The notes below the pieces were generated by a model that was given only the letters and a program-made list of their open reading frames with translations, was not told the DNA's origin and ran no database searches. 64,000 nucleotides of DNA from assembly GCA_964411375.1 (NCBI GenBank), contig CAYPKR010000001.1:358629-422628 (forward strand), in the 5' to 3' direction. Position numbers and translations under genes: made by a program. Below are positions 14,565 to 64,000 of the stretch, piece after piece (positions within the stretch are counted from its first letter, which is position 1; every line of letters starts with the position of its first letter). Origin of the DNA: an uncultured Candidatus Saccharibacteria bacterium. Lineage in GTDB: Bacteria > Patescibacteriota > Minisyncoccia > Phycocordibacterales > UBA12088.

Positions 14565-17270
14565 TTGTCTAAATCTACTCACATGACTCCATTCAATAAT
14601 TTCACAACCAAGGCGAAGGAAGCGGTACGAAAAGCCCACGAACTTGCTATTGAACGCGGACAAAATCACGTCAATCCGCTCCATCTTCTAACCGCACTCA
14701 TCCTGCAGGAAGAAAATACTGTCTTTTCTATACTCGAGCGACTCGACGTCGATACGGTACTTTTGACTGACACACTCCTTGAAGCACTTGAAGCGCCGGA
14801 AGGATCATCAGTGCTCTCACCTTCATATCAGCTCTACCTCACGCCAGAACTTGCACACGTACTTGAAAATTCTGCACGCATTGCGTCAGCACTTGGCGAT
14901 CAGTTTGTTTCTACCGAACATCTTTTCATCGCTATTCTTGATAATCCGGGCCCAGCGCGCGAAGTAATCGCTCGTTTCCGATTTGATCGGAATTCTGTCA
15001 TCAGAATTATTCAGGAACTCAAGGCAAACAATGTTACTGATGTCGCACAACCAAAGAAATTTAAAGCCCTCGCAAAATTTACGCGTAATCTAACGGCGCT
15101 TGCCGCTGACAACAAACTCGATCCAGTCATCGGTCGTGATGGTGAAATCACCCGCGTCATTCAGATCCTTTCTCGTCGAACCAAAAATAATCCGATTTTG
15201 ATCGGTGAGGCGGGTGTTGGAAAAACCGCAATCGCCGAAGGTCTCGCAAATCGTATCGCATCAGGTGACGCACCAGAATCGCTTCGCGGAAAGGAACTTG
15301 TTGCGCTCGACTTAGGGCTTCTCATTGCGGGTACGAAATATCGCGGCGAATTTGAAGAGCGTCTCAAAAACATTATGAAAGAAGTTGAGAAGGCGGATGG
15401 GAAAGTCATCCTCTTTATCGACGAGCTTCATACGATCGTTGGTGCGGGTGCAGCAGATGGCGCGATGGATGCGTCAAACATGCTGAAGCCAGCGCTTGCG
15501 CGCGGAGAACTTCGGGTTATCGGTGCAACGACGCTTGCTGAATATCAAAAGCACATCGAAAAAGATGCAGCGCTCACGCGTCGCTTCCAGCCGGTCATTG
15601 TAAATGAACCGTCGATCGAAGATGCGGTCGCGATTCTTCGTGGACTTCGTGAAAAGTACGAAGTCTTCCATGGCGTTCGAATTACCGATGAAGCAATCGT
15701 TGCGGCAGTTAATCTTTCTTCCCGCTATATCACTGATCGATTCTTGCCGGACAAGGCGATCGATTTGATTGACGAATCTGCGTCAGCACTCCGTATCTCG
15801 CTTGAAAATAAACCGGCGGCTCTCGAAGATGCACACCGCAAAATAATGCGCCTCGAAGTCGAGAAGGAAGCGCTTTCAAAAGACTTGGAAATTCACGAAG
15901 GTCGTGATACCAAGGCGCGCATCAAACAAATTGAAAAAGAAATCGCCGATCTTCGCGAGAAGACTGCCGACCTCGAACTTCGATGGAGCAACGAAAAGGA
16001 AGTGCTCTCTGATATCAAGGCGCTCAAAAAACAACTTGAAACGCTTCGAAATGAAGCAGAAAACGCGGAAGCAGTTGCTGATCTTTCTCGTGCTGCCGAA
16101 GTACGCTATGGAAAAATTCCGGCACTTGAGCGCGATCTCGATCAGAAGGTCAAAAAATTAAAGCGATTCCAGCAGACGCGCCGTGTGCTGAAAGAAGAGA
16201 TTATGGAAGAGGATATTGCAGCAGTTGTTGCGCGCTGGACGGGTGTTCCGGTTTCTCGAATGCTCGAAGAAGAAGCACAGAAGCTTTCTCGTATGGAAGA
16301 TTCGCTGAAAGATCGAATCGTGGGACAAGATGATGCAATTACGAAGGTTGCCGCTGCGGTGAAGCGATCTCGTGCAGGCATTGCTGATCCAAATCGTCCA
16401 ATCGGTTCGTTCCTCTTCCTCGGTCCAACGGGAGTTGGTAAAACGGAACTCTCAAAGGCGCTCGCTGAATTCATGTTTGATGACGAGAAATCGCTCATTC
16501 GAGTCGACATGTCCGAATACATGGAACGCCACGCAGTGTCCAAGCTCATCGGTGCGCCTCCAGGATATGTTGGATTTGAAGAAGGCGGATCTTTGACCGA
16601 ACTCGTTCGTCATCGTCCGTACTCGGTTTTGCTCTTCGACGAAATTGAAAAAGCGCATCCCGAAGTCTTCAACATTCTGCTTCAAGTTCTCGACAGCGGT
16701 CATTTGACCGATTCAAAGGGACGCAAAGTGAACTTCAAAAATACAATCATCATTTTGACTTCGAACATTGGTTCGCAATACATCGATCGCATGACGCAGA
16801 TCGGATTCTCGAAAGATAATGGTAACGAGGCGGTGCAGTACGAAATGACAAAGGACAAGGTGATGGATTCGCTCAAAGAATTCTTCCGCCCTGAATTCCT
16901 CAATCGTCTTGATGAAATCATCATCTTCAATATGCTCTCCGAGGACGCGATTAAGAATATTGTCGCGATGCAGGTGAAGTTGGTCGCTGATCGCTTGCTC
17001 CAAAAGGGAATCACGCTCACGCTCACTGATGCCGTCTATGCGCATCTCGCAAAAACTGGATACGATCCGCACTACGGTGCCCGTCCACTGAAGCGCTTGA
17101 TTCAAAACAAGATTTTGACCCCGGTCGCCTCGATGATGATCTCCGAAGGACTGCTTGGGGGTGGCTCGGTTGTCGTCGACATGAAGGGGACGGAATTCGC
17201 ATTCGATGTGAAGAAAAAGAAGGGAACCGTTCGTCGGGCTTCAAAGAAAGAGGAGAAGGTGTTGGTATAG
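14565..17270 (+). CDS. clpB: ATP-dependent chaperone ClpB
   Basis: 901 aa with Clp-N repeats, D1 Walker [16 protein letters not shown], a long coiled-coil M-domain, D2 Walker [16 protein letters not shown], Walker [11 protein letters not shown] and sensor GARPLKR. Confidence 0.85.
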
Positions 17271-50491: not shown

Positions 50492-52117
50492 TCATAGTGC
50501 GTGTGCAGTTACTTTTTCTACATCAAGCGATGCGGCGTTTGGTTCGGCGCTCCAGATTTGAATTCCTAAGCTTCCGCTATGCACGTATGAAGGCTTCACC
50601 GCGCTCGATACGGTTTTTCCATACGCGCTGCATGATGCTCTGTTACCATCGACTTTCATCGATGCTTCGAATGTGCCGGTCGTAGTCGGATAGTTGTACG
50701 GTGTCGCTTCAATTGTTTGTTGTTCTTTGTTGATATGCGCGACGAGCGAGATGGTCGATGTTGAAAATGCGCATGAGAGGAATGACTTTGAGTCAGTCTG
50801 GTAGCGGGAAATAAGCGAGAGGTGACTTCCGCTATTCCACTTTGCAGAAATAGTCATTTCGTAGTCATGCCAGAGACGTGAGCCATTCAGAAGTCCTGCT
50901 GCACCCGTCGTATCCGGAGTCGAGCGGAGATGCAGTGTATTATCGCTTCTGGTGACTTTGCCCCAGTTACTGCTCCAATCGGTCGTGAAGGTATCGCTCG
51001 TGTAGGGAAGCGGGCGAGGCGCAGAATCATTCAGCATATTGCGGAGATCATCACCACTCCACGATGCGACTGGTTCGATACGCTTCACCATGTACGCATT
51101 TGGATCAGCGTAGTTGAACGGGTCGTCGCGGCTCGGGTCGATCTGATAGAAGGCGTACATAAACTGCGCTTTCACCACGTTTGAGAGAATATCTTTTGCA
51201 TCCGCAAAGTTCACCGTGTCTTGTCCGTAATCGTTAAAGGGAAACGCGAATGCGGTGACTTTTTTTCCAAATGCATTTTCGAGTTTTTGTTTGGAGAATA
51301 TAAGGTCGTCAGTGACGCGCTTGGTGTATTCGTTGTTTGTTTCAAGGCGTTTGTCGCCCGTTCGCCAAAATTTGTTACTTAAGAATCGATTTTGCGGCAG
51401 AACATCGAGATTGTCTCCGGTTGATGACGCGGTTGGCACATCGTAGAGGCGGTGATCTTCATCGCCGTGCGATTCAAGCTCCCATCTGCCGCTGTCTGCC
51501 ATGAATGCGAGTTCTGATTTCGAGAGATAAAAGTTTGACGTCTTTTTTACATCATCTGGAAGGGAGAAGCCGGTGATGACGAACATGACTGCATTGAAGC
51601 CGAGATCTTTGAGAACCGGGTCGACTGGATAAAAACTTTCTTTGCGTCCATCGTCGAATGTGAGGAGGAATGATTTTGGCGGCAATGTTATTTTCCCTTG
51701 CATAAACTGCTCAAACTGATCGAGCGTGATCGTATGCCAGCCGTCGTCATGGAGCGCACGCATTTGTTCGACGAAAATATTTTGTGGAAGTGGAGGATTA
51801 TCGTTTCCTTCTGGTGGTGTGCCGTGATAGAGGAGAACAGGAACTCCGCCCGAACCATCGCTCGAACTTTGTGAAAACCACACCGCAGCCGCCTGATTCC
51901 CCCACGGAAGGCGATAAAATGCGGTGTAGAAGGTGTTTCCGGTAATGCGGGAAATCAATTCTCCGGTTCCGTTCACAAAATTGTAGGCGCCGTTATATAC
52001 GAGGAAGCCCATGACTGCGCCAAGCAGAATGATGATGAAGGAAGACATCAGCGCTACTTTTTTGAAGGAAAATTCGAAAAACATTTTTTGAAGATTATCT
52101 ATTATCTCGTTCCCCAA
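50492..52117 (-). CDS. polysaccharide deacetylase (NodB-domain; PgaB/IcaB-like) with C-terminal beta-rich domain
   Basis: Motif FLLTFDDGRKESFY (TFDDG) and His motifs. An N-terminal TM helix is present. Confidence 0.65.
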   Translation of the reverse strand: MGNEIIDNLQKMFFEFSFKKVALMSSFIIILLGAVMGFLVYNGAYNFVNGTGELISRITGNTFYTAFYRLPWGNQAAAVWFSQSSSDGSGGVPVLLYHGTPPEGNDNPPLPQNIFVEQMRALHDDGWHTITLDQFEQFMQGKITLPPKSFLLTFDDGRKESFYPVDPVLKDLGFNAVMFVITGFSLPDDVKKTSNFYLSKSELAFMADSGRWELESHGDEDHRLYDVPTASSTGDNLDVLPQNRFLSNKFWRTGDKRLETNNEYTKRVTDDLIFSKQKLENAFGKKVTAFAFPFNDYGQDTVNFADAKDILSNVVKAQFMYAFYQIDPSRDDPFNYADPNAYMVKRIEPVASWSGDDLRNMLNDSAPRPLPYTSDTFTTDWSSNWGKVTRSDNTLHLRSTPDTTGAAGLLNGSRLWHDYEMTISAKWNSGSHLSLISRYQTDSKSFLSCAFSTSTISLVAHINKEQQTIEATPYNYPTTTGTFEASMKVDGNRASCSAYGKTVSSAVKPSYVHSGSLGIQIWSAEPNAASLDVEKVTAHAL

Positions 52118-53490
52118 CGGGTGTCAGCGATTGTGACCAAGGCCCACGGCAACTGCCACATGAGAATCACACTGTAAAACCAGAACGATAGGACTGCGCG
52201 AAGCCATGGTCGTCTACCAACCTGCGCGCGGTAATAGATGCCGTGGAGGAGAAGCATAAGGAGGAGACCGACCAGGTAGACAACCGGAACGATGTGATAC
52301 ACGACTGGATTCCAAACAACGGCGTGCAGGAAGACGAATGGACCAGCGAATGCGAGAAACACATACATATAGAAGAAGACTGCCGCAAACGGATGCTTCT
52401 TCCAGAGGAATGAGGACGCGATAAAGGTTTCGCGAATCCACGATTTCTTCCAGCGTTGTTGTTGCTTCACATACTTTGAGAACGAACTTGGTACCACCGT
52501 ATGTGCTTTTGCTTCGGGAGAGTACGCGGTCATATATTTGCGAAGCATGTAATTGGTGAGTGAGCGATCGTCGCCGAAGGTGCATTCGGTTCCGAAGAAT
52601 GTTTGATGTAGCCAGTCGTCGATGAACTCGTCGAGATATTCTTTTCGATACGCACTACAACAGCCGGGACAGCAGGTTACGATTCCGAATACTGATTCCG
52701 CCGCTTTGTACACTTTGAATGCGATGTAGTAGCGAAGCGCCTGCATTTGGGTCAACACATTTTCGTCTGCATTGTAGACGTCCGTGTGTCCCGAAACTGC
52801 TCCGACTCTTCTATCGGCAAAATATTTTACGAGATGACGTACGCCGTCTGGTGAGATGAAGCTGTCAGAGTCGATGAAAATAATGATTTCATTTTTGGCG
52901 CGCTTTACTCCTTCCGCCATTCCGGCGCGCTTGCCGCGATTGACCTTCCAGTCGACGACTTCGACGCGCGCGACACTGCCTGATATATCTTTTGCTGCGC
53001 GTTCCATTTCTCCAAACGTGCCGTCGGTTGAGCCGTCATTGATCGCGATAACCTCGATTTTTTCGGATGGATATTCGACTTCCGCAAAGCGGAGCAAGGT
53101 TTCCCGAATATTGTCTTCTTCGTTTTTCGCGGGCACGACGAAGGTTATCGTCGGTTCGTAATCTGCTTTGAAATGAATGGTGCGATGGAAGAACGAGAGG
53201 AAAAAGCGTGAGAAGATATAACCGGTAATCGTAATACTGTAGATACGGAAGAAAAGGTCGTCGTTCAGGTAACTTCCGCTCGTCACCTTGACCAGAATGA
53301 TCGTGTAGATGATGCAGAAGAATGCAAACCACAGTCCGGCGTCTCCCCAGACAAACTGGATCTCCCTCTCTTTTTTCTGTCGGCGAGGATTGGTTAGCGT
53401 CGTTTGCATGATGGTGTGATTATCTGCCAATACCGCGATATGCGATGTCACTTTCGATAAATGATTCTTTGTCGAGACAATTGCGCCCAT
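52102..53490 (-). CDS. processive family-2 glycosyltransferase (PgaC/IcaA/cellulose-synthase-like)
   Basis: D, DxD (IDSDS), TED-like and QQRW (QQRWKKSW) motifs, flanked by TM helices. Confidence 0.7.
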   Translation of the reverse strand: MGAIVSTKNHLSKVTSHIAVLADNHTIMQTTLTNPRRQKKEREIQFVWGDAGLWFAFFCIIYTIILVKVTSGSYLNDDLFFRIYSITITGYIFSRFFLSFFHRTIHFKADYEPTITFVVPAKNEEDNIRETLLRFAEVEYPSEKIEVIAINDGSTDGTFGEMERAAKDISGSVARVEVVDWKVNRGKRAGMAEGVKRAKNEIIIFIDSDSFISPDGVRHLVKYFADRRVGAVSGHTDVYNADENVLTQMQALRYYIAFKVYKAAESVFGIVTCCPGCCSAYRKEYLDEFIDDWLHQTFFGTECTFGDDRSLTNYMLRKYMTAYSPEAKAHTVVPSSFSKYVKQQQRWKKSWIRETFIASSFLWKKHPFAAVFFYMYVFLAFAGPFVFLHAVVWNPVVYHIVPVVYLVGLLLMLLLHGIYYRAQVGRRPWLRAVLSFWFYSVILMWQLPWALVTIADTRWGTR

Positions 53491-54778
53491 CGATCACGAT
53501 CTCGATATTTTTCTCTCTGAATTCATACGGCGTCAGCGAGACGAATTCTTTGTGGGCGGTCGCGATGATTGCTGCTGACGCGCCGTCGAGGGCCTTTTCA
53601 AGTGAATCAACATTGGATTCTTTGGGCGCATACGGATCGAATACTTGCACATTCGCGCCTTTCTTTTTGAGCGCGTGCCAGATCTCGTAGGCTGGGCTTT
53701 CGCGCAAGTCGCTGATATTTGCTTTGTAGGAAAGTCCGAGAAGGGCAATCGTTGTTCCTTGGAGCGAACTGTTTTTTTCTTGGAGTTCTTGTTCCAAAAT
53801 ATGAACGGTGAATTCCGGCATGCCGTTGTTTATTTCACGAGCAAGTGAAAGGAATCGATGCGTAAATCCATTTTCTTTTGCATAGCGAATCAAGTAGTAC
53901 GGATCAACGGGGATGCAGTGTCCGCCAACTCCCGCACCCGGATGATGGAGCATGAAGCCGAATGGTTTGGTCGAGGCGCCTTCGAGTACGTTGGTGACAT
54001 CGATCCCGAGCATGTCGAAGGACATCGCGAGTTCGTTGACGAATGCAATGTTTACATCGCGGAAGGAATTTTCAACCATCTTCACTGCTTCTGCTTCGCG
54101 AATGGTTTGCATTTCGTGTACATTTGCATCGAGAATCGATCGATAAAAACGTGCGGCACGTTCGCGTGCTTCTGGTGTTATACCTCCAACCACGCGCGGG
54201 ATTTTATTTGCTGGCCATTTTTTGTCACCTGGATTGATTCGCTCTGGACAATGTGCAAAATCAAAATCAACGCCACCCTGAAGACCAGATTCTTTTTCGA
54301 GAATTGGAATGAGAATTTCTTCAGATGTTCCGGGATGCACTGTCGATTCGAGAATAAGTAATTGTCCCGGAGTCATATTTTTCCCAATCGAACGGCATGC
54401 CTCTTGGAGAAGGGTGAGGTCAGGCATATGTGATTCATCGACGGGAGTTGGTACACAGATAATCACTGTTTCATTCGTACCAATGGTAGAAAATCGATCA
54501 GAGAGTCCGAGTTGTCCGCTTCGAAGTTCACTCTCAAGTCGTTCATCTAAGTCGGGAACCGAACCATTTCGAATGCGCTCTAATTTTTTGCTATCAATAT
54601 CAATACCGGTCGAAGCATATCCGTTCCGTTTGGCGAGAAGGAGAAGCGGAAGTCCAACATATCCGAGTCCAACGACCGCAACACTTCCAACCGTATATTT
54701 TGAATCTTCAGAAAAGTCCGCATCTCTATTCCACTTGGTGCGAGGATTCCTTCTTTGAATAAGCGCATTTTTTTCCAT
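53420..54778 (-). CDS. nucleotide-sugar (UDP-glucose/UDP-ManNAc) 6-dehydrogenase
   Basis: N-terminal Rossmann fold VAVVGLGYVGLPLL, a catalytic Cys region and a UDPG_MGDP_dh C-terminal domain. Confidence 0.75.
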   Translation of the reverse strand: MEKNALIQRRNPRTKWNRDADFSEDSKYTVGSVAVVGLGYVGLPLLLLAKRNGYASTGIDIDSKKLERIRNGSVPDLDERLESELRSGQLGLSDRFSTIGTNETVIICVPTPVDESHMPDLTLLQEACRSIGKNMTPGQLLILESTVHPGTSEEILIPILEKESGLQGGVDFDFAHCPERINPGDKKWPANKIPRVVGGITPEARERAARFYRSILDANVHEMQTIREAEAVKMVENSFRDVNIAFVNELAMSFDMLGIDVTNVLEGASTKPFGFMLHHPGAGVGGHCIPVDPYYLIRYAKENGFTHRFLSLAREINNGMPEFTVHILEQELQEKNSSLQGTTIALLGLSYKANISDLRESPAYEIWHALKKKGANVQVFDPYAPKESNVDSLEKALDGASAAIIATAHKEFVSLTPYEFREKNIEIVIDGRNCLDKESFIESDIAYRGIGR

Positions 54779-55127
54779 AGTAATTTTGTGTTAGCTATTC
54801 TCTATCTGAAGACGACAGGTTATTCGAAGCACTTACCGGTTCATGTAAACTTCAGGAACTCGTCGTTTTGTCAGAAGAAGCAATTCGGTCAAAGTGAGGG
54901 CCCCTTGCGTTTATATTCCGCAAAGGGCCCTCAACTACGGCATCACCAGCCGTAAACGCTCCTCAGACATTGATAGGTACTTAGTCTAATAACTCGTCTT
55001 CCGATATATCTGCATAATAAATTGAACGTCGATGCGAATTTTTTCTTCGCATACCAGAATCGTAGCAATGTAGTGGTGAAGGAAAAATGAAAAAAACCAT
55101 GAAGAAAAATTCATACAAAGAAAACAA

Positions 55128-55160
55128 AAAATGCGCAGGGAAGCCTGCGCATTTTTTGTA
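55128..55160. terminator. bidirectional hairpin terminator
   Basis: AAAAAATGCGCAGG-GAAG-CCTGCGCATTTTTT. Confidence 0.6.
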
Positions 55161-55167
55161 CCTATTG

Positions 55168-56334
55168 CTATATTGTTTCGCCGCGCGTCTCCGAACTACT
55201 CGAAAAATCAACCGATATCTCACTCTTGAGTTCAGATTTCTCCTCGGAGGTAGAGGGTTCCATAACGGGAGTGCCGCTTGGCAAATATACGGATACTGTT
55301 GTACCTTGTCGGAGCGCGCTTCTGATAGTGATTCGTCCATGATGTACGCGGACAATTTCATTCACGATCGTGAGCCCAAGTCCGCTTCCGGCTCGACGCA
55401 CGCGACGCACTCTCGAAGTGTCTGCGCGATAAAACGGTTCAAAAATATGGAAGAGATCTTCCTGAGAAATACCGATACCGGTGTCTGCAACCGAGAAGAG
55501 AACGCGGTTACGATCATTTCGCTCTAATAGAACAGTGACGACACCGCCAGAATCGCGTGGAGTATAGCTGATCGCATTTTTAATCACGTTCATAACGACT
55601 TGTTCGAGTGCAGTTGCGTTGCCCCACACGGTGCGGTACGTATCCATTTTGACAACTATTTTGACATTTCGTTCTTCTGCGAATGAACGAAGCCTCCGCA
55701 CCGTATCTTCAACAATCACTCCAAGATCAGTATCCTGAAATTGGATTCGCTCGGGTCTTGTGAACATGTCGAGCGAAAGCAAGTTGTTGATAATCGAAGA
55801 AATGCGATCAAGCTCATCAACGGTGCTGTGGAATACTTTTTTTATTGATGGATCGAGTTCGGGATCGAGGAGTGCGACCTCACTTGATGTCTTGATCGTT
55901 GAAAGCGGTGTGCGAAGTTCGTGCGCGATATTACTGATGAAGAGTTTCTGATAGCGAAGCGTGTCGCGTGCGGGGCGAAGTGTAAAGCGCGCAACCAATA
56001 TCCCGAATCCAATTGCGATCAATATGACACCGCCAAATATATACCAGATGCTTTTTTCTTGGATTCCACTAATCGACTTGGCAAGCTCTTCGGGTGTTTG
56101 CAGTGGTGCATTTGTGAGGATCGCACGGATATTTTCGACGACGAACATCGCAATCGCGTGGTTGTTGTATTCAAGCACCATGCCGAAGGCGATGATGAGA
56201 ATCAAAACCATTCCTGCTTGGAGCAGAATGACGTGCGTTGTTGTTCGGAAAAAGAGATCGCTACGATACTTCTCCCGTAATCCGGTAGCCCACTCCGCGA
56301 ACTGTTTCAAATAACGTTTCGCCATCTTTTCCAT
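55168..56334 (-). CDS. sensor histidine kinase
   Basis: 2 TM helices, H-box NIAHELRTPLSTI and HATPase N/G boxes. Confidence 0.8.
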   Translation of the reverse strand: MEKMAKRYLKQFAEWATGLREKYRSDLFFRTTTHVILLQAGMVLILIIAFGMVLEYNNHAIAMFVVENIRAILTNAPLQTPEELAKSISGIQEKSIWYIFGGVILIAIGFGILVARFTLRPARDTLRYQKLFISNIAHELRTPLSTIKTSSEVALLDPELDPSIKKVFHSTVDELDRISSIINNLLSLDMFTRPERIQFQDTDLGVIVEDTVRRLRSFAEERNVKIVVKMDTYRTVWGNATALEQVVMNVIKNAISYTPRDSGGVVTVLLERNDRNRVLFSVADTGIGISQEDLFHIFEPFYRADTSRVRRVRRAGSGLGLTIVNEIVRVHHGRITIRSALRQGTTVSVYLPSGTPVMEPSTSEEKSELKSEISVDFSSSSETRGETI

Positions 56335-56947
56335 TTTCGAGTTTTTTACGAAGATTTTTCATGTGCACGTCAAGTACGTTGGACCACCGAAGGGCATTGA
56401 AATCCCAGACTCGGTCGAAGAGCGTTTCGCGAGATAATACCACTCCTGGTTCCTTGAGGAAACATTCAAGCAGCGCGAATTCTTTGAGCGTGAGTGGCAC
56501 CTCGTCGCCATCCTTTCTGACAGTTCTGGTTGCCACATCCATTTCAATCACACCAACTTTGAGCACAATCGGTTCTGAAGTCTTGGGACGACGAAGCACC
56601 GAATTGATGCGCGCCACTACTTCCTCGAATGAGAAGGGTTTGACGATATAATCGTCGGCGCCTTTATTCAAGACTTCGATTTTATGTTCGGTTTCGTTTC
56701 GTGCGGTCAAGACGATGATTGGTGTCGTAACCCCTTCTTTTCGAACCGTTTCGGTAATGGTCGCTCCATCCATGCCGGGGAGCATAAGGTCGAGTAAGAT
56801 AAGGTCGTATTCTTTTTGGTAGAGTATAATTCGTTTGCAGGCTTTCTCGGAATCGGAGAGCCAATCTACCGCAAATCCTTCAAGTTCAAGTCCTTTTTTA
56901 AGAGCTTTTGCTAGTTTTTCCTCATCTTCAACTATTAGCAGTCGCAT
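56261..56947 (-). CDS. OmpR-family response regulator
   Basis: Receiver domain (LLIVEDE..., LDLMLPGMDG) plus a winged-helix C-terminus (LTLKEFALLECFL). Confidence 0.8.
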   Translation of the reverse strand: MRLLIVEDEEKLAKALKKGLELEGFAVDWLSDSEKACKRIILYQKEYDLILLDLMLPGMDGATITETVRKEGVTTPIIVLTARNETEHKIEVLNKGADDYIVKPFSFEEVVARINSVLRRPKTSEPIVLKVGVIEMDVATRTVRKDGDEVPLTLKEFALLECFLKEPGVVLSRETLFDRVWDFNALRWSNVLDVHMKNLRKKLENGKDGETLFETVRGVGYRITGEVS

Positions 56948-57991: not shown

Positions 57992-58603
57992 ATGTTGTTG
58001 CCAACAAAATATTCGTTTCGATTGATATCCTCACGGAAGTATGAGGAGAATTTGGCTACCACGATTCCACCGATTACTAAGAATGTTTCTCAAGAGGATA
58101 TTGATGATGGTAAGCGAGTATTTTTGAAACTCGCGGGAATGGTTGGACTTGGCGTTGTTGCTTCGCAAGTATTTTCAAATAAAGCAGAAGCGTACGTCAT
58201 GGGAAGCGCACCGACCTCGGGAGTTGTCGGAGTAAAAAATTCCTCGAACACGCGCATTAATCCGGCAACGGATGAAAGTCTCACCTCGCTCTTAACCGGT
58301 CAAGGGGTTACGAAGCTTACGACAAATCTTACTGCTTCGGGCACGGTACGTACGCCAACGAGCGGCAAAAAAATTCGAGTCTACGCGACTCGCTTTTCTC
58401 TGACTGCTGACATGACCAGCGTCTCATTCCGATTCACCTCGGGAGGCACTGATTATGAAAAGTTTCTTGCGCCAAAAACCGGAGGACTCTACGGATCAAA
58501 CAATCATCCGAATTATGTCGAAGGTGGCGTCGATCAAGTATTGTACTGTGCAATTTCAGGAACCGGCACAGTACAAATTAATGTTGATTATCTCGAAGTA
58601 TAA
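57992..58603 (+). CDS. exported protein with Tat-type (KR-variant) signal peptide
   Basis: DDGKRVFLKLAGMVGLGVVASQVFSNKAEA|Y: the Tat motif (S/T-R-R-x-F-L-K) appears as KRVFLK with an h-region and an AxA site. The mature part is Ser/Thr/Gly-rich and beta-rich. Confidence 0.45.
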   Translation: MLLPTKYSFRLISSRKYEENLATTIPPITKNVSQEDIDDGKRVFLKLAGMVGLGVVASQVFSNKAEAYVMGSAPTSGVVGVKNSSNTRINPATDESLTSLLTGQGVTKLTTNLTASGTVRTPTSGKKIRVYATRFSLTADMTSVSFRFTSGGTDYEKFLAPKTGGLYGSNNHPNYVEGGVDQVLYCAISGTGTVQINVDYLEV

Positions 58604-58619: not shown

Positions 58620-59054
58620 ATGCGTGATTCGATCAATCTCCGCGGCGCACTTCATATCGAACTTCGAAATAAAGAAGGAGATCTTGTGAGTGATATCAAG
58701 GTGCCAAATACAATTACCGATTTGGGCAAAGCATACATTGCTGATCGCTTGGGCTCACAGACACAAACAGCAATGAGTAATATGGCAATCGGAACAGGAA
58801 CGCCCTCCACGACAACGCTCGGCACTGAACTTGCAAGACGAAATTTTCGAACCCCTACATCAAGTAGTGCAACGTGGACGTATGTTGCGGAGTGGAATAT
58901 TGATGACAATGTTTCTGGAACAATAACCGAAGCAGGAATTTTTAATTCTGACCTGGCAAATAGCGGCACGATGCTCTGCTCATCTTCTTTTACGGGAATC
59001 GTAAAAGCAGTGAATGACACGCTGACCATAACGTGGACGATAACAATTTCATAA
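58620..59054 (+). CDS. hypothetical beta-rich protein
   Basis: 144 aa ending ...LTITWTITIS. Confidence 0.35.
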   Translation: MRDSINLRGALHIELRNKEGDLVSDIKVPNTITDLGKAYIADRLGSQTQTAMSNMAIGTGTPSTTTLGTELARRNFRTPTSSSATWTYVAEWNIDDNVSGTITEAGIFNSDLANSGTMLCSSSFTGIVKAVNDTLTITWTITIS

Positions 59055-59800
59055 TGCCTCCAACTGAAAACAGACGAAGAGACAGGAAGCAAGATGGATC
59101 AGATGGTCCTGAATTTTCTCTCGGTGAAAATTTGATTCTTCGAAGACTTCGGTGGGGAAGTCTTGGCCCTCGCGCGCTTCGGTCGATGGATGCAGTTGCT
59201 GACGATTCTCTCGTTGATGAAAGTCTGGCACTTGCGAGACATATGCAGTCAATGATTGCTGACAAAATCGAGATTGCATCTGCCGGCGCACACCCGCTCG
59301 TAAATCAGGGAATGCAAATAGCGAAGCAAATTGTTGCTGACATTTTTAATGAAAAATCTGATGAGGAAGTTCCGCCAGAGCCAGCACCAGCGGATCAGGT
59401 ACCGGTAGAAACTCCGCCGCCAGAAGAAGTTCCTCCAGAAGAACCGATACAAACAGAAACTGAAACAACAACGCCAGAACAAATTCCTGCCGAAGAAGAA
59501 AGTCCAGTTGAGGAATCGAAGGTTCCGGAACCTGAGATACAAGAAACTCCACCGGTAGAAGATACAGCAAGTTCAACTCCTAAAGTGGAGATTCCCGAAT
59601 CTGCTCCAGAGACAAATTCAACGACGACTGATGAAAATGGTGTCGAGTTAGATACTGAATATAATCCAGTCACGGAAGACTCGCCGCCAGCGCTTTCACC
59701 TCAAGCAGAAGGGAACGCAAGTACGACTTCACCCGCTCCAAATGTTCAGAAAGCGGAATCCACCACATCAAATCCGTCAGAGCCTGTTGAAGACGAGTAG
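59033..59800 (+). CDS. highly acidic Pro/Glu/Thr-rich (disordered) protein
   Basis: 255 aa. The C-terminal 150 aa is PE-repeat-like, reminiscent of scaffold/spacer proteins. Confidence 0.4.
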   Translation: MDDNNFIMPPTENRRRDRKQDGSDGPEFSLGENLILRRLRWGSLGPRALRSMDAVADDSLVDESLALARHMQSMIADKIEIASAGAHPLVNQGMQIAKQIVADIFNEKSDEEVPPEPAPADQVPVETPPPEEVPPEEPIQTETETTTPEQIPAEEESPVEESKVPEPEIQETPPVEDTASSTPKVEIPESAPETNSTTTDENGVELDTEYNPVTEDSPPALSPQAEGNASTTSPAPNVQKAESTTSNPSEPVEDE

Positions 59801-59842
59801 TGCCCTCATGGTATTCTAATAAGTAATTAATTTTTTTAAGAT

Positions 59843-60646
59843 ATGGCCATAACGACACTCGACGGAGCACTCGCGGGAATGCAACCCCCGGTTGAATTTT
59901 CAAAATCGCTCACCGGTACCATGGTTGCTGGTCGTGCGCACTCACTCTTTTATCTTTCAGGTATTCCTGGCGCTGCAGTCGCTCCGTCTCCCGGTATCGG
60001 TGGGGCAGTACTCACTAGTTATTCCGGACAGTTACCATTTACGAATCCAGGTGCAGGAAATAGTTATCTTGCACGTTTTTGTGCACAAGCAACGATCGCA
60101 GGGACACTTCTTCTTTGCGATCGACTCTGGCACAACAGCGGTATCAACATTACAGCAACCAGCGAACAGACATTTACCAGTTCTGCACAAATCCCTACAC
60201 GCGATAATACTGGCACCAACAATGGCGTTGGAGTGTATGCAGGAGTAGAAGTATCAAGTGCGACTGGTTCTGGTACTCCGACTCTGACACTCAAATATAC
60301 AAATTCTTCCGGTACTCAAAATCAAACGGCAACCAACACGGTCGCAACCGTTGCGTCATCGATTGCAGGAACGTTTCATACTATTGGTCTTGCGGCGGGG
60401 GATGTTGGAATTCAAAAAGCCCAATCGCTGACGCTCTCTGCTACATGGACTTCGGGCACGATTCATGTCGTTCTCTACCGCGTACTTGCCCGAATGGAGC
60501 TTGGTCCCCAAATTCCAAACGCAATGGATCTTTTGACCGCCGGATTTACTCGCATGTACGACAACACGGTTCCATTCCTCGTATTTATTCCAAACACCAC
60601 GACGACTTCAAACATTTCAGGAAATGTAATCTGGACGCAAGGCTAA
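59843..60646 (+). CDS. hypothetical 267-aa protein, paralog 1
   Basis: About 60% identical to the next gene (MAITT..., LPFTNP, CDRLWHNSG, NNGVGVYAGVEV, TLKYTNSSGT, VLYRV). Confidence 0.45.
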   Translation: MAITTLDGALAGMQPPVEFSKSLTGTMVAGRAHSLFYLSGIPGAAVAPSPGIGGAVLTSYSGQLPFTNPGAGNSYLARFCAQATIAGTLLLCDRLWHNSGINITATSEQTFTSSAQIPTRDNTGTNNGVGVYAGVEVSSATGSGTPTLTLKYTNSSGTQNQTATNTVATVASSIAGTFHTIGLAAGDVGIQKAQSLTLSATWTSGTIHVVLYRVLARMELGPQIPNAMDLLTAGFTRMYDNTVPFLVFIPNTTTTSNISGNVIWTQG

Positions 60647-60653
60647 TTTTTGT

Positions 60654-61463
60654 ATGGCTATTACAACAATAAGCGGTGCGGTCAGCAGCATGATGCAGCC
60701 GATTGATTTTGTTAAGCAAGCGACTGGTACCTTGGTAGGCGGTCGCCCGATATCGCTATTTTATTTAGCTGGTACTCCTGCTGCTGCAACCGCTCCTTCT
60801 CCCGGAATCGATGGAGCAGCGCTTACTACGTACACGGGTCAATTGCCATTCACGAATCCCTTGAGTGGAAATACATACTTGGCACGAATGCAGGCACAAG
60901 CATCAATTCCAGGCACCCTTATGTTATGCGACCGACTCTGGCATAACAGCGGATATAACGTAACCTTAACCACGGAACAAACAAGTAATGCCGCGCAAAT
61001 CCCTGCACGCGACAATAATGGAACTAACAACGGAGTTGGAGTGTACGCCGGTGTGGAAGTTGCAACGGCACTTGGAAACGGTACGCCGACGTTCACACTT
61101 AAATATACAAATTCATCGGGAACCGCGGGACAAACCGCAACCAATACGATTGCGACTGCAAACGGTCCCGTTGCCGGCACCTTTTTTCCAATCGGTCTTG
61201 CAAACGGAGATGTGGGAATCCAAAAAGTTGAATCACTCACACTTTCTGCAACGTATACGTCGGGCAAGATTGGAGTCGTGTTGTACCGAGTCATTGCGCG
61301 ACTTGAAATTGGGGTAACAGGCGGAATCATGACGAATGCGATTGATGCAGTGACTGCCGGTTTTCCGCGCCTCTATGATAACAGCGTACCGTTTCTCATT
61401 TTTAATCCGAACGGTGTCAACTCAACAAATATCAATGGACACATTATCCTCTCGCAAGGATAA
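60654..61463 (+). CDS. hypothetical 269-aa protein, paralog 2
   Basis: A tandem paralog of 59843. Confidence 0.45.
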   Translation: MAITTISGAVSSMMQPIDFVKQATGTLVGGRPISLFYLAGTPAAATAPSPGIDGAALTTYTGQLPFTNPLSGNTYLARMQAQASIPGTLMLCDRLWHNSGYNVTLTTEQTSNAAQIPARDNNGTNNGVGVYAGVEVATALGNGTPTFTLKYTNSSGTAGQTATNTIATANGPVAGTFFPIGLANGDVGIQKVESLTLSATYTSGKIGVVLYRVIARLEIGVTGGIMTNAIDAVTAGFPRLYDNSVPFLIFNPNGVNSTNINGHIILSQG

Positions 61464-61472
61464 TAGAAATAT

Positions 61473-61706
61473 ATGGCACAAGTAGGACGAGCAAATTTTA
61501 CATCCGCATTTGGAATGAAACACCGAAAGACGGATCGTTTTGCGCTGATGCGTGATACGTGTTCTGAGTCAGATAACAAACCAAATATCTGGAAGACGTG
61601 GTGGCTTGATGATATCTCCGTCTCTGCAACCACAAAAACACTTACGGATACTCTCTCCGGAAGTGGTGGTGGATCATCCGGCAATATTTTCATAATGTCT
61701 GAGTGA
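61473..61706 (+). CDS. small hypothetical protein
   Basis: 77 aa. It overlaps the tatC start by 4 nt. Confidence 0.3.
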   Translation: MAQVGRANFTSAFGMKHRKTDRFALMRDTCSESDNKPNIWKTWWLDDISVSATTKTLTDTLSGSGGGSSGNIFIMSE

Positions 61707-62440
61707 GCATGGATTCTCTGACGGCGTTTACGGAAAAATACGGCACCTATCTTGAAGATGTCCGTGTTCGAGTGTACCGACTGGTAGTTATTTTTGCGAT
61801 TACTTTCGTGGTCGGATTTTTTTCGACCTCATGGCTCGTTAAAATATTGGTTGATGTTTGGAAAATAGAAAATGTAACGATTGTTGCGACTTCGCCGTTT
61901 CAGTTGGTTGATCTTGCGGTATCGATCGGATTTTTTCTTGCGATAATTGTCATTTTACCTCTCAGTGTACGAGAGATGTATGCGTTTCTCCGCACCGGTC
62001 TCCTCAAGCGTGAGCGGCGCCTATTTCTTTCGCTCCTTCCGGTCGCATTTCTATTGTTTGTTATTGGTTTTGCGTATGGAGTTGCGGTCATGTATTTTGC
62101 GCTCCAGGTCATTGCACAAGTGAATGTTTCTTTAGGTGTTGCTAATTTGTGGGACATCACTCGATTTGTATCCCAAATAATGATTACTTCGGCACTCCTT
62201 GGCGTTGTATTTGAATTTCCGGTAGTACTAACTTTTTTGATTCGACTTGGGATCGTGCCAATTTCATTCCTAACTCGGAAGCGTCGCCATGCGATCGTAG
62301 TTATCCTCATTTTAGTTGCGCTTCTGCCTCCAACAGACGGAATATCCTTTATAATAATGTCAGTGCCGCTCATCGGTATTTATGAGCTGACTATCTTTTT
62401 TAATTCTTTTAAGAAGCGTGGTCGAAATTTACCAGTATAA
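61703..62440 (+). CDS. tatC: twin-arginine translocase subunit TatC
   Basis: 245 aa with 6 TM helices in TatC topology and conserved FFSTSWLV..., PFQLVDLAVSIGFF and LPPTDG motifs. Confidence 0.7.
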   Translation: MSMDSLTAFTEKYGTYLEDVRVRVYRLVVIFAITFVVGFFSTSWLVKILVDVWKIENVTIVATSPFQLVDLAVSIGFFLAIIVILPLSVREMYAFLRTGLLKRERRLFLSLLPVAFLLFVIGFAYGVAVMYFALQVIAQVNVSLGVANLWDITRFVSQIMITSALLGVVFEFPVVLTFLIRLGIVPISFLTRKRRHAIVVILILVALLPPTDGISFIIMSVPLIGIYELTIFFNSFKKRGRNLPV

Positions 62441-62455: not shown

Positions 62456-62626
62456 ATGTTTGGACTAGGAACTCGAGAAATAATCATCATTGGTGTTGTC
62501 GCCGTATTGCTGTTTGGATCAAGCCGCATACCTGCGCTTACGAAGAGTATTGTTGATGCAATTCGTACACTTCGTGGAGCATTCAAAGAGGAGGAAATAG
62601 TGTCGTCGAAAAAAGTTATTAAATAA
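62456..62626 (+). CDS. tatA: twin-arginine translocase TatA/E-family subunit
   Basis: MFGLGTREIIIIGVVAVLLFGSSRIPALTKSIVDAIRTLRGAF: TM helix + FG hinge + amphipathic helix. AAAGGAGAG RBS. Confidence 0.7.
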   Translation: MFGLGTREIIIIGVVAVLLFGSSRIPALTKSIVDAIRTLRGAFKEEEIVSSKKVIK

Positions 62627-62636
62627 AGAGTATTCT

Positions 62637-62801
62637 ATGGATATTGGAGTGAAGGAAATAGCAATTATCGCAGTCGTGATGGTGGTCCTCTTTGGATCAA
62701 GTCGTATCCCAGAATTTGCAAAAAACATTGTTGAAGCGATGCGCAATGTTCGCAATGCATTTTCTGGTAAAGAAACGGTTGCAGTAAGCAAACGCCGCTA
62801 A
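62637..62801 (+). CDS. second TatA/TatB-family subunit
   Basis: MDIGVKEIAIIAVVMVVLFGSSRIPEFAKNIVEAMRNVRNAF. Confidence 0.65.
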   Translation: MDIGVKEIAIIAVVMVVLFGSSRIPEFAKNIVEAMRNVRNAFSGKETVAVSKRR

Positions 62802-62832
62802 TACTTCGCGGCACTGCCGCCTGTACTCGGGT

Positions 62833-64000
62833 ATGAACATAATCGGCGACCCTAAGCTAGGTATATTCAGGGCGTGCCTTGGTATATTTTTTATTAGTGG
62901 GATTCTATTCCACGCTTCTCCTCTATTTGCCGATAGTTATCCAACGTATGCTCCAGGCGTTCAGATCACTATCGGAGAATTTGTATATAACGACGATTTT
63001 TCTCCGAGCACCGATGATTGCACGATAACTGTTTATAATCCATCGGGAACAACAGTGGTGAGTGCAGTCACCATGACTGCAAATGCAAACGGATGGCATT
63101 ACTATGCTTTTACTCCTTCAAGTATTGAGGGAACATGGCCCGCCTTCATTTCGTGCGGCTCAACTCTTACCGGAGATTTGATAAAGGAAGACAAGACATT
63201 TCAAATTAGTTCATATGTCGTTTCCTCGACGACCGTTGCCTCCCTCGTAAACGCAAACACCAACTCAGTCGTCACTTCCGCTTCTTCTTCGCTCCCTGCA
63301 ACGGTGTGGAATTACACATCGCGTACACTTTCATCGTTCGGCACGCTCGCGACTGATGTATGGAGCGCGACGACTCGGCTACTCACGGGCGCAAGTATTA
63401 CTGGCGGTTCACTCGCGACACTTTCTGATGTTCAAAACGCTACTTCATCGATTGCCTCTGCAATTACTACCGCTTCAAGTTCGGTCGCGAATAGTGTGAA
63501 TGGAAATACTAATTCGCAAACGAGCGGTATTACATCGGCGGTTAACTCACATACTGATTCAGCACTGAATACCGCAACTTCTTCTATCCAATCGGCAATT
63601 ACGACCGCCTCATCGTCCGTTGCAAATTCAGTAAATGCAAACACCAACACGGTTGTTGGAAATGCTTCCTCCTCATTGTTTGCGATGCTTCCGTCAGCAA
63701 TCTGGTCCTATAGCGCACGCACCCTTACTTCATTCGGAACATTGGCAACTGATGTGTGGAGCGCAACCACACGCCTCCTCACGGGTGCCGGTATAACCGG
63801 AGGTTCTCTCGCAACACTCTCTGACGTAAATTCAGCCTCGAGCTCAATTCAATCTGCAATCACAACCGCGTCATCGTCCGTTGCAAATTCAATTAATGGC
63901 AACACAAACTCGCAGACTTCGGGAATTACTTCAGCCGTAAACGCACACACTGATTCTGCACTCGCAACCGCAACCTCATCGGTCGCAGCAGTTGTAAATG
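62833..64000 (+). CDS. large secreted Ser/Thr/Ala/Asn-rich repeat protein (3' end beyond window)
   Basis: Signal peptide MNIIGDPKLGIFRACLGIFFISGILFHASPLFA. Repeats of about 123 aa (...TVWNYTSRTLSSFGTLATDVWSATTRLLTGA.ITGGSLATLSDV...SSVANSVNGNTNSQTSGITSAVN.HTDSAL...) occur at least 2.5 times. The frame is open to the window end. Confidence 0.55.
   Translation, partial: MNIIGDPKLGIFRACLGIFFISGILFHASPLFADSYPTYAPGVQITIGEFVYNDDFSPSTDDCTITVYNPSGTTVVSAVTMTANANGWHYYAFTPSSIEGTWPAFISCGSTLTGDLIKEDKTFQISSYVVSSTTVASLVNANTNSVVTSASSSLPATVWNYTSRTLSSFGTLATDVWSATTRLLTGASITGGSLATLSDVQNATSSIASAITTASSSVANSVNGNTNSQTSGITSAVNSHTDSALNTATSSIQSAITTASSSVANSVNANTNTVVGNASSSLFAMLPSAIWSYSARTLTSFGTLATDVWSATTRLLTGAGITGGSLATLSDVNSASSSIQSAITTASSSVANSINGNTNSQTSGITSAVNAHTDSALATATSSVAAVVN

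Follow-up and report, generated by a model that had tools for sequence, protein, structure and literature searches.

What does the open reading frame (ORF) encode that starts directly behind the twin-arginine translocation (Tat) genes of an uncultured Candidatus Saccharibacteria bacterium and then leaves the available DNA? The stretch analysed here, called the window throughout, comprises 64,000 nucleotides (nt) of contig CAYPKR010000001.1 (assembly GCA_964411375.1, positions 358,629 to 422,628), and the ORF takes up its 3′ end. An initial annotation had described the product as a giant secreted protein built of ancient tandem repeats, as is typical of fibrous adhesins or host-attachment fibres. 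By combining repeat and codon analysis, structure modelling and a comparison of related loci, we find that the window probably covers the 5′ third to half of a cell-surface fibre gene of a Patescibacteria (Candidate Phyla Radiation, CPR) bacterium, and that the fibre would be anchored on the cell by a cohesin–dockerin pair.

Signal peptide, Ig-like domain and tandem repeat of the window protein

The 5′ part of the fibre gene (62833..64000, + strand) begins with an ATG at 62833, 31 nt 3′ of the stop codon of the second tatA gene, and its 389 codons are free of stops up to the window end, where the frame leaves the window; that a signal-peptide ORF directly follows the tat genes was therefore correctly seen in the initial annotation. 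Besides the stop-free translation, the assignment is based on 76 homologs of 30–55% identity, which were retrieved in a protein search with the window fragment (best E value 1e-72). The first 33 amino acids (aa) (MNIIGDPKLGIFRACLGIFFISGILFHASPLFA; 62833..62931, +) show the layout of a Sec-type signal peptide, with K8 and R13, a hydrophobic core at residues 14–27 and then PLFA|DS, and this agrees with the earlier view that the protein is secreted. Residues 7–27 were predicted as a helix in the AlphaFold2 model of the window fragment, and the signal peptides of relatives share the layout and end in A-x-A-like sites. No RR, KR or RK precedes the hydrophobic core, the Tat-substrate pattern S/T-R-R-x-F-L-K thus being absent; among 38 relatives, RR was found in two and KR or RK in three, and the remaining 33 have an ordinary Lys-rich n-region of Sec type. 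Because RR and KR are missing here and RR is so rare in the relatives, the window fibre protein is, as judged from its signal peptide, not a canonical Tat substrate.

Residues 35–128 (62935..63216, +) were assigned, based on the model, Foldseek matches and invariant columns, to an MG2/filamin-like immunoglobulin (Ig) beta-sandwich, which is the probable distal tip domain. Residues 45–125 were modelled by AlphaFold2 with predicted local distance difference test (pLDDT) scores of 93–98, and GEFVY.DDF, C62, NGWHYY and WP..(I/M)SCG are conserved in the domain. In the model, the beta-sandwich superposes on macroglobulin (MG) or filamin domains: Foldseek against the PDB matched the filamin domain of Lin-41 (4umg, E 1e-4), MG domains of alpha2-macroglobulin (2p9r, E 2e-4) and also those of C3/C5, with E values ranging from 1e-4 to 1e-3 and a probability of 1.0. 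The Pfam MG2 model (PF01835) remained below threshold on the window fragment (E 0.035; 14.9 bits vs a cut-off of 32.8), and relatives pass this threshold, such as P0003 with 55 bits.

Behind this domain the protein is repetitive. When it was compared with itself, the best offset was 132 aa, with 96 identities vs 52 at the next best offset, and the Ser/Thr/Ala/Asn-rich stalk alone gave 86 identities at this offset, whereas shuffling the same residues 500 times gave 38.9 ± 2.5 (maximum 48), so that the tandem repeat reported earlier is genuine. At the DNA level the repeat spacing is 396 nt and the best segments are 70–71% identical; Tandem Repeats Finder reported no array on 62500–64000, because the repeat DNA is too diverged. 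Repeat unit 1 (132 aa; 63295..63690, +), delimited by the 132-aa/396-nt offset, consists of a Trp block and a long helical Ser/Thr/Asn-rich segment, and unit 2 (63691..64000, +), recognized by its homology to unit 1, is ended by the window edge after 103 of its 132 aa. Ahead of unit 1 stands a 24-aa partial helical piece that resembles the tail of a repeat unit (aa 131–154, SSTTVASLVNANTNSVVTSASSSL; 63223..63294, +), supported by the direct-repeat families D4/D5 and a modelled helix at 132–152. With one full unit, the truncated second and this leading piece, the window holds about 1.96 copies instead of the at least 2.5 first claimed. Likewise, the period of 369 nt or 123 aa given before, whose digits look transposed, has to be corrected to 396 nt or 132 aa, and the identities of about 85% for protein and 75% for DNA to 79–82% and 66–71%, respectively.

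A Trp-containing block followed by a Ser/Thr/Asn-rich segment, as already described for the units, was confirmed, the block standing twice in the window protein (aa 157–200 and 289–332). Its first copy (PATVWNYTSRTLSSFGTLATDVWSATTRLLTGASITGGSLATLSDV; 63295..63432, +), defined by alignment and profile, is composed of ~18-aa mini-repeats of the form D[VI]Wxxxx R[TS]LT xFGTLxx, and the second copy (63691..63828, +) is 82% identical to it in aa and 67% in nt, with a third-position identity of 30%. The stalk segment at aa 197–285 (63421..63687, +), long, alpha-helical and rich in Ser/Thr/Asn/Ala, was identified from the model and its periodicity; it carries VN(A/G)NT motifs and a 45-aa sub-repeat, SSIxSAITTASSSVANSxNxNTN, which is nested in the repeat and found at aa 205, 250 and 337. 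AlphaFold2 predicted this segment, as a monomer, to be a single uninterrupted helix of 89 residues (pLDDT 83–95). The hydrophobic moment of the helix peaks at 3.75 residues, with a power that was reached by 0 of 1000 shuffles, and on this modelled helix such a period suggests a coiled-coil oligomer. A second helical segment, aa 329–389 (63817..63999, +), is incomplete and was assigned by homology to unit 1, the model being unconfident at the fragment end. Searching the fragment against PDB sequences gave no match to the stalk and only non-significant, composition-driven phycocyanin matches (E 0.05 or worse).

The two repeat copies were then compared over 102 ungapped codons (63298–63603 vs 63694–63999). 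They share 79% of aa and 66% of nt, and the identities at codon positions 1, 2 and 3 were 78, 88 and 32%, respectively; the proportion of synonymous differences (pS) is 0.74, which is saturated, and that of nonsynonymous differences (pN) is 0.18. At 53 of the 81 identical residues different codons are used, compared with 54.0 expected if codons were drawn at random according to the usage of this gene, and in 4 of 17 conserved Ser-Ser pairs one copy has a TCN and the other an AGY codon. Since the synonymous sites are saturated and randomised while the protein is 79% identical, the repeat duplication is old and purifying selection has acted strongly on both copies (dN/dS ≤ ~0.06). The contrast between conserved protein and diverged synonymous sites that had been ascribed to purifying selection is thus even sharper than first stated. 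Active avoidance of DNA repeats was rejected as a cause (53 differences observed vs 54.0 expected, and 62 vs 64.9), because the synonymous divergence is not above random and saturation suffices.

Comparable repeats occur in L002, a related locus from an unrelated species, where Trp-block copies are 94–98% identical in aa at a third-position identity of 0.34–0.42, and recent duplicates are also present (96% nt identity in L002 and 93% in L005). The co-occurrence of old conserved units and recent duplicates therefore indicates that in this family new units continue to arise by tandem duplication and are conserved afterwards. The 1478-aa member encoded in L002 (9923–14359) has, beside its old units with saturated synonymous sites, one recent segmental duplication at an offset of ~356 aa, whose Trp-block copies at aa 400 and 756 are 100% identical in aa and 96% in nt, and it also holds a third module type, VWNVATSTFTNAGTAGKHxVATLDAAVSS.

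Homolog family, dockerin and the downstream neighbour

All homologs with a named source come from Patescibacteria/CPR (Parcubacteria, Paceibacterota, Magasanikbacteria and Wolfebacteria). A scan of a genome collection recovered nine loci, with relatives at 44% identity or less and with the record labels Saccharibacteria (six), Falkowbacteria, Paceibacterota and Gammaproteobacteria (L009). Full-length members measure 505–676 aa in the protein search and 440–1478 aa in the genome loci, from L009 (440 aa, no stalk repeats) through L006 (940 aa) to L002. The attribute “giant” thus finds no support in the family, most of whose full-length members fall in the 505–676 aa range, and the window gene itself runs off the edge. 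A lack of the repeats in orthologs, which might have spoken against the earlier proposal, was not observed: the motif W-x(4-7)-R-x-[LI]-[TSN] is present at least once in 76 of 76 homologs, and the number of stalk units varies across species from 0 in L009 to >10, with many in L002.

From the N- to the C-terminus, family members consist of a signal peptide, an MG2/filamin-like Ig domain, a variable stalk, two Ig-like beta-sandwiches, a Gly-rich linker and a type I dockerin. Most full-length matches contain MG2 and Dockerin_1, one of the two C-terminal sandwiches passing the Pfam MG2 model; the dockerin of relatives matches PF00404 with E values from 6e-10 to 4e-6, and its duplicated DxNxDxxVNxxDFSILL segments are readable. 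For P0005, the closest full-length relative, AlphaFold2 predicted the N-terminal Ig domain, a stalk of low confidence, two beta-sandwiches at 219–425 with pLDDT >90 and, after the Gly linker, a two-helix dockerin region with pLDDT ~80–87. The best Foldseek matches of this model were adhesin extender repeats and macroglobulin domain arrays. In the literature, we found no description of the fibre family, the Trp block or the gene cluster.

A possible partner of the dockerin is encoded next door. In all eight loci that extend downstream (L002, L004, L005, L006, L007, L008, L009 and L054), the gene directly after the fibre gene, starting within ~110 nt of its stop codon, encodes a ~290-aa protein that has a signal peptide, then a conserved N-terminal domain and, at the C-terminus, a hydrophobic segment with K/R residues behind it; a ~570-aa paralogue comes next. 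When the profile of the ~290-aa protein was compared with all PDB sequences, the top three matches were scaffoldin cohesins of Ruminococcus flavefaciens (5aoz, E 2.3e-5; 5m2o, E 2e-4; 5m2s, E 1.5e-3). Other matches in this region were also recorded. The 291-aa and 572-aa proteins of L054 (12032–14600) and their equivalents match the NCBIfam model NF047446 of an OmpL47-type beta-barrel at E 6e-8 and 7.5e-9, respectively, both under its curated cut-off. In L006, the downstream proteins also contain a Big_13 Ig-like domain, and in this one locus a PilM-like type IV pilus assembly gene (15207–16346) lies 3.7 kb downstream of the fibre gene.

Based on these features, we propose the following model. 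The pre-protein, which carries the signal peptide, would be exported by Sec. Beyond the window it would continue as its relatives do, the two Ig-like beta-sandwiches and the Gly-rich linker leading up to a type I dockerin, which may bind the cohesin-like module of the likely membrane-anchored downstream neighbour that is present in 8 of 8 loci. Because the C-terminal dockerin would hold the fibre to the cell, the MG2/filamin-like Ig domain at the N-terminus would be outermost, at the distal tip. In between, the stalk alternates Trp blocks with long Ser/Thr/Asn-rich helices and may oligomerise into a coiled coil in which small beta connectors link the helices; the number of units, which would arise by tandem duplication and then come under strong purifying selection, would set its length and reach. 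By keeping a binding domain a defined distance away from the cell, such a fibre would likely serve contact with a host cell or a surface. Of the earlier suggestion of a fibrous adhesin or host-attachment fibre, the fibre-like surface protein is borne out by the 89-residue helix, the distal Ig domain and the variable stalk, while the adhesive or host-attachment role is one that we infer, no adhesive domain having been detected.

Several points weigh against this reading. Pfam and NCBIfam scans of the window protein and its relatives detected no known adhesive or ligand-binding domain. The dockerin and the rest of the C-terminal half lie beyond 64000, outside the window, and the closest relative is only 44–55% identical, so the architecture of the window gene is extrapolated. 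The Trp block reaches a pLDDT of ~50 as a monomer, both in the window fragment and in P0005, and we suspect that it needs an oligomeric partner. As for the neighbour, the cohesin match spans only the first ~55 residues of the domain and the Pfam cohesin model gave no match, for which reason its N-terminal domain is called cohesin-like, an assignment from profile comparison that is supported but not proven. Moreover, the fibre model leaves the conserved linkage to the tat genes unexplained, cohesin–dockerin binding and the oligomeric state are predictions, and any ligand would be hypothetical.

Tat genes, viral contigs and alternative explanations

In the window, tatC (61703..62440, +; PF00902, E 1e-39) and two tandem tatA genes (62456–62626 and 62637–62801, +; PF02416, E 7e-11 and 5e-12) precede the fibre gene, probably in the same operon. 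No promoter- or terminator-like site was found in the 31-nt gap between tatA and the fibre gene, and a promoter-like site lies upstream of tatC, which suggests that the tat genes and the fibre gene are probably co-transcribed. The order tatC-tatA, directly upstream of and co-directional with the fibre gene, recurs in L002, L003, L004, L006 and L054/L055; tatA alone is found upstream in L005, and L001 and L007 have tat genes within 4 kb on the other strand. The Tat adjacency that caught attention in the initial annotation is hence a conserved feature of the family.

Further upstream, the gene at 57992–58603 (+) encodes a 203-aa protein with a Tat-type signal (DDGKRVFLKLAG...NKAEA|Y), which was recognized from the motif of its homologs and is conserved in the cluster. 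Homologs with 55–73% identity occur in eight other loci, including L001, L002, L003, L007, L008, L009 and L054, and all carry (K/R)R-x-FLK (RRRVFLK in L002) before a hydrophobic stretch ending in AEA. The protein has no match in Pfam, NCBIfam or PHROG and, as far as its signal tells, is likely the cargo of the adjacent TatAC. In L002 and L006, the proteins of ~200 aa encoded immediately ahead of tatC were considered as its counterparts and discarded, being not homologous; the true homologs lie further upstream in these loci.

Between the 203-aa gene and tatC, an alternative cassette (58620–61463, +) was seen on comparison with L054 (5410–8070). In the window and L007 it comprises four genes, encoding a 144-aa protein with a phrog_5417 match (E 2e-21) and weak tail-fibre/tail-collar matches, a 255-aa acidic Pro/Glu/Thr-rich protein, and tandem paralogs of 267 and 269 aa that are 66% identical to each other and match no family. 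An internally repetitive protein of ~810–940 aa, also with no family matches, takes this place in L054, L001, L002, L003, L004, L006 and L008. Two small conserved genes of ~200–244 aa and ~58–59 aa stand directly upstream of tatC in L054 (8072–9002) and at the equivalent sites of L001, L002, L003, L004 and L006, and no homolog of either was found in the window. Upstream, on the opposite strand, 50492–56947 (−) encodes a polysaccharide deacetylase, a family 2 glycosyltransferase (chitin-synthase-like) and a UDP-glucose dehydrogenase, then a histidine kinase and an OmpR-type response regulator; by annotation, these genes form an envelope-polysaccharide module adjoining the surface-protein cluster. 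The context is chromosomal and non-phage, with tat, two-component system and polysaccharide synthesis genes and transfer RNAs in the window and with ribosomal protein, RF-1 and EF-Ts genes in L054.

The Trp block extends well beyond this family. Neither the block nor the repeat is matched by any model in Pfam, NCBIfam or PHROG. Its stalk-wide pattern in the family is VWxxxxRTLT...DVWxxxxRxLT, and W, R, L, L, D, W, R and L are invariant over 24 aligned copies from many species. A profile search with the block returned 2417 representative clusters at E ≤1e-3, 1000 of them at ≤1e-10, in proteins of up to 2268 aa and with up to 23 matched stretches; a dockerin was found in 10 and MG2 in 8 of the 51 top matches, most of which are without any Pfam domain. 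On 44 predicted viral contigs of IMG/VR (L010–L053), ORFs also carry the Trp block, in most cases preceded by a small Ig-like domain at the N-terminus. The ORF of L022 comes behind genes for a portal protein, a peptidase and an unannotated product of 315 aa, that of L014 directly behind a virion structural/tail-spike-like gene. None of the ORFs on these contigs matched a PHROG family. Several of the viral-like proteins have no signal peptide and consist of the small Ig-like domain and then tandem Trp blocks, and a profile comparison between the N-terminal domains of CPR and viral-like proteins (57% probability, E 1e-4) is suggestive of their homology. By tblastn, the window repeat, the L006 repeat segment and P0077 gave no match in 50,697 GenBank phage records, and the viral link is drawn only from the IMG/VR contigs. 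The expectation that the W...RTLT and TAGSxGK motifs are those of known phage tail fibres was abandoned, as these records contain no match.

These observations allow other explanations to be weighed against the anchored surface fibre. A purely structural fibre, namely an envelope or S-layer spacer or strut that stands on the membrane cohesin protein and sets the envelope geometry without being adhesive, would suit the absence of a detected adhesive or ligand-binding domain and the location of the gene in a conserved, near-housekeeping cluster, and the very strong purifying selection seen in the stalk is better explained by a structural constraint than by an arms race. We nevertheless hold it to be unlikely, since stalk lengths span more than a threefold range across species, which one would not expect of a strut with fixed geometry, and since fibrillar adhesins typically present a folded Ig domain at their free end (PMC9210967). 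The position of the gene after tatC-tatA would find an explanation if the product depended on Tat, either as a non-canonical cargo exported in the folded state or as an accessory of a Tat-exported complex. Agreeing with this are the tat genes upstream and co-directional in the window and five further loci, or nearby in L001 and L007, the short gap free of terminator-like sites, and RR signal peptides in P0001 (LRRRDFLA) and P0006 (DRRNS), as well as in the L002 ORF (MRQGRRNSF), which was read outside the 38-relative count. However, the lack of RR or KR in the window protein, the Lys-rich Sec-type signal peptides of 33 of the 38 relatives and the presence of a better cargo in the cluster, the 203-aa protein whose homologs all carry (K/R)R-x-FLK, make Tat dependence a distinctly unlikely explanation.

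That the gene encodes a virion protein, as a phage or prophage fibre, seems very improbable in spite of the 44 IMG/VR contigs, on two of which, when examined, the Trp-block ORFs lie beside portal or virion structural genes, of the N-terminal Ig-like domain and Trp blocks shared with viral-like relatives devoid of a signal peptide, and of the phrog_5417 match and weak tail-fibre matches of the neighbouring 144-aa gene. A signal peptide is present here, and relatives have a dockerin and the cohesin-like neighbour; synteny with tat and housekeeping genes is kept across distant species, no capsid, portal or terminase gene was found among the neighbours scanned, and the gene is thus not located in a virion module. 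In addition, its guanine-plus-cytosine content is like that of the rest of the window, and GenBank phages gave no match. Hardly any weight can be given to a part in a cellulosome-like polysaccharide-degrading complex, the classical role of dockerins. The type I dockerin of relatives and the rumen cellulosome scaffoldin cohesins as best PDB matches of the neighbour would point in this direction, but scans of family members and neighbours turned up neither a glycoside hydrolase domain nor a carbohydrate-binding module, and cohesin/dockerin modules outside cellulosomes are described as widespread (Peer et al., 2009, PMC3035643, as cited in PMC10066038). The cohesin–dockerin-anchored surface fibre therefore remains the reading that we prefer. 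A wider version of it is possible, though we consider it rather doubtful: the fibre, its cohesin-like anchor, the Tat translocase and the Tat-signal protein might form one undescribed CPR-wide appendage cluster, serving as a contact organ of episymbionts, with the N-terminal Ig domain and the Trp block shared with viruses by borrowing and the Trp block acting as an oligomeric fibre-building repeat.

Known surface systems and meaning for CPR bacteria

Dockerin-bearing envelope proteins have been noted in Saccharibacteria (PMC10633639) and Omnitrophota (PMC10066038), and in a cultivated Saccharibacterium a dockerin-domain envelope protein was noted as essential (PMC10633639). The present family resembles non-cellulosomal cohesin–dockerin surface proteins in the C-terminal type I dockerin of relatives with its two Ca-binding segments, the putative membrane-anchored cohesin-like partner and the absence of enzymes. 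It differs from them in that the dockerin carries a long repeat stalk with an Ig domain at the tip, and in that the putative partner, to which the Pfam cohesin model is silent, is encoded directly downstream within a conserved tatC/tatA cluster.

With fibrillar adhesins and Periscope Proteins (SasG, Aap, Rib and Sgo_0707; PMC8201768, PMC9210967) the family has in common that a signal peptide is present and that a folded domain stands at the distal end of a repetitive stalk, the unit number of which varies between genomes, so that the tip reaches out to different distances. In Periscope Proteins, the repeats are near-identical in DNA, and this drives rapid recombinational changes in length (PMC8201768). 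The window copies, by contrast, have a DNA identity of 66%, with 32% at third positions, and because of this and their randomised synonymous sites the repeat array of the window is old and recombinationally stable. Further differences are that helices and Trp blocks, not Ig-like domains in tandem, make up the stalk, and that the anchor is a dockerin rather than LPXTG.

Trimeric autotransporter adhesins of the YadA/BadA type have polar coiled-coil stalks with a 15/4 period, [aliphatic]xxNT motifs and short connector modules. The stalk studied here is similar in its polar Ser/Thr/Asn-rich helices, its non-heptad period of 3.75 (15/4), its [aliphatic]xxNT motifs and its short connectors, a resemblance by analogy that we take as a lead only; unlike these adhesins, the relatives end in a dockerin, the Pfam scan found no YadA anchor and no outer membrane is expected. 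The ORFs of uncultivated viruses (IMG/VR L010–L053; P0077, P0089 and P0108) share with the family the tandem 18-aa DVWxxxxRTLTSFGTLxx after a small N-terminal beta-sandwich, but differ from it in being without signal peptide, MG2 pair and dockerin and in their location, on the two contigs examined, in virion structural modules.

CPR/Patescibacteria, most of which are uncultured, live attached to other cells, and to our knowledge their means of attachment are largely unknown beyond type IV pili. A surface fibre as such belongs to an ordinary class; what is new here is the undescribed repeat module, the plausible docking partner next to it and the unexplained conserved Tat linkage. The Trp block is a widespread repeat, outside the domain libraries searched and shared with viral contigs. 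Repeats that are near-identical in protein and randomised at synonymous sites represent the opposite regime to the recombination-prone repeats of Periscope Proteins. The conserved Tat linkage points to the small Tat-exported protein as a further part of the cluster. For the CPR cell, the family offers a concrete anchoring scheme, in which a dockerin on the fibre would be bound by a cohesin-like membrane protein encoded next door and the length of the stalk would depend on the species.

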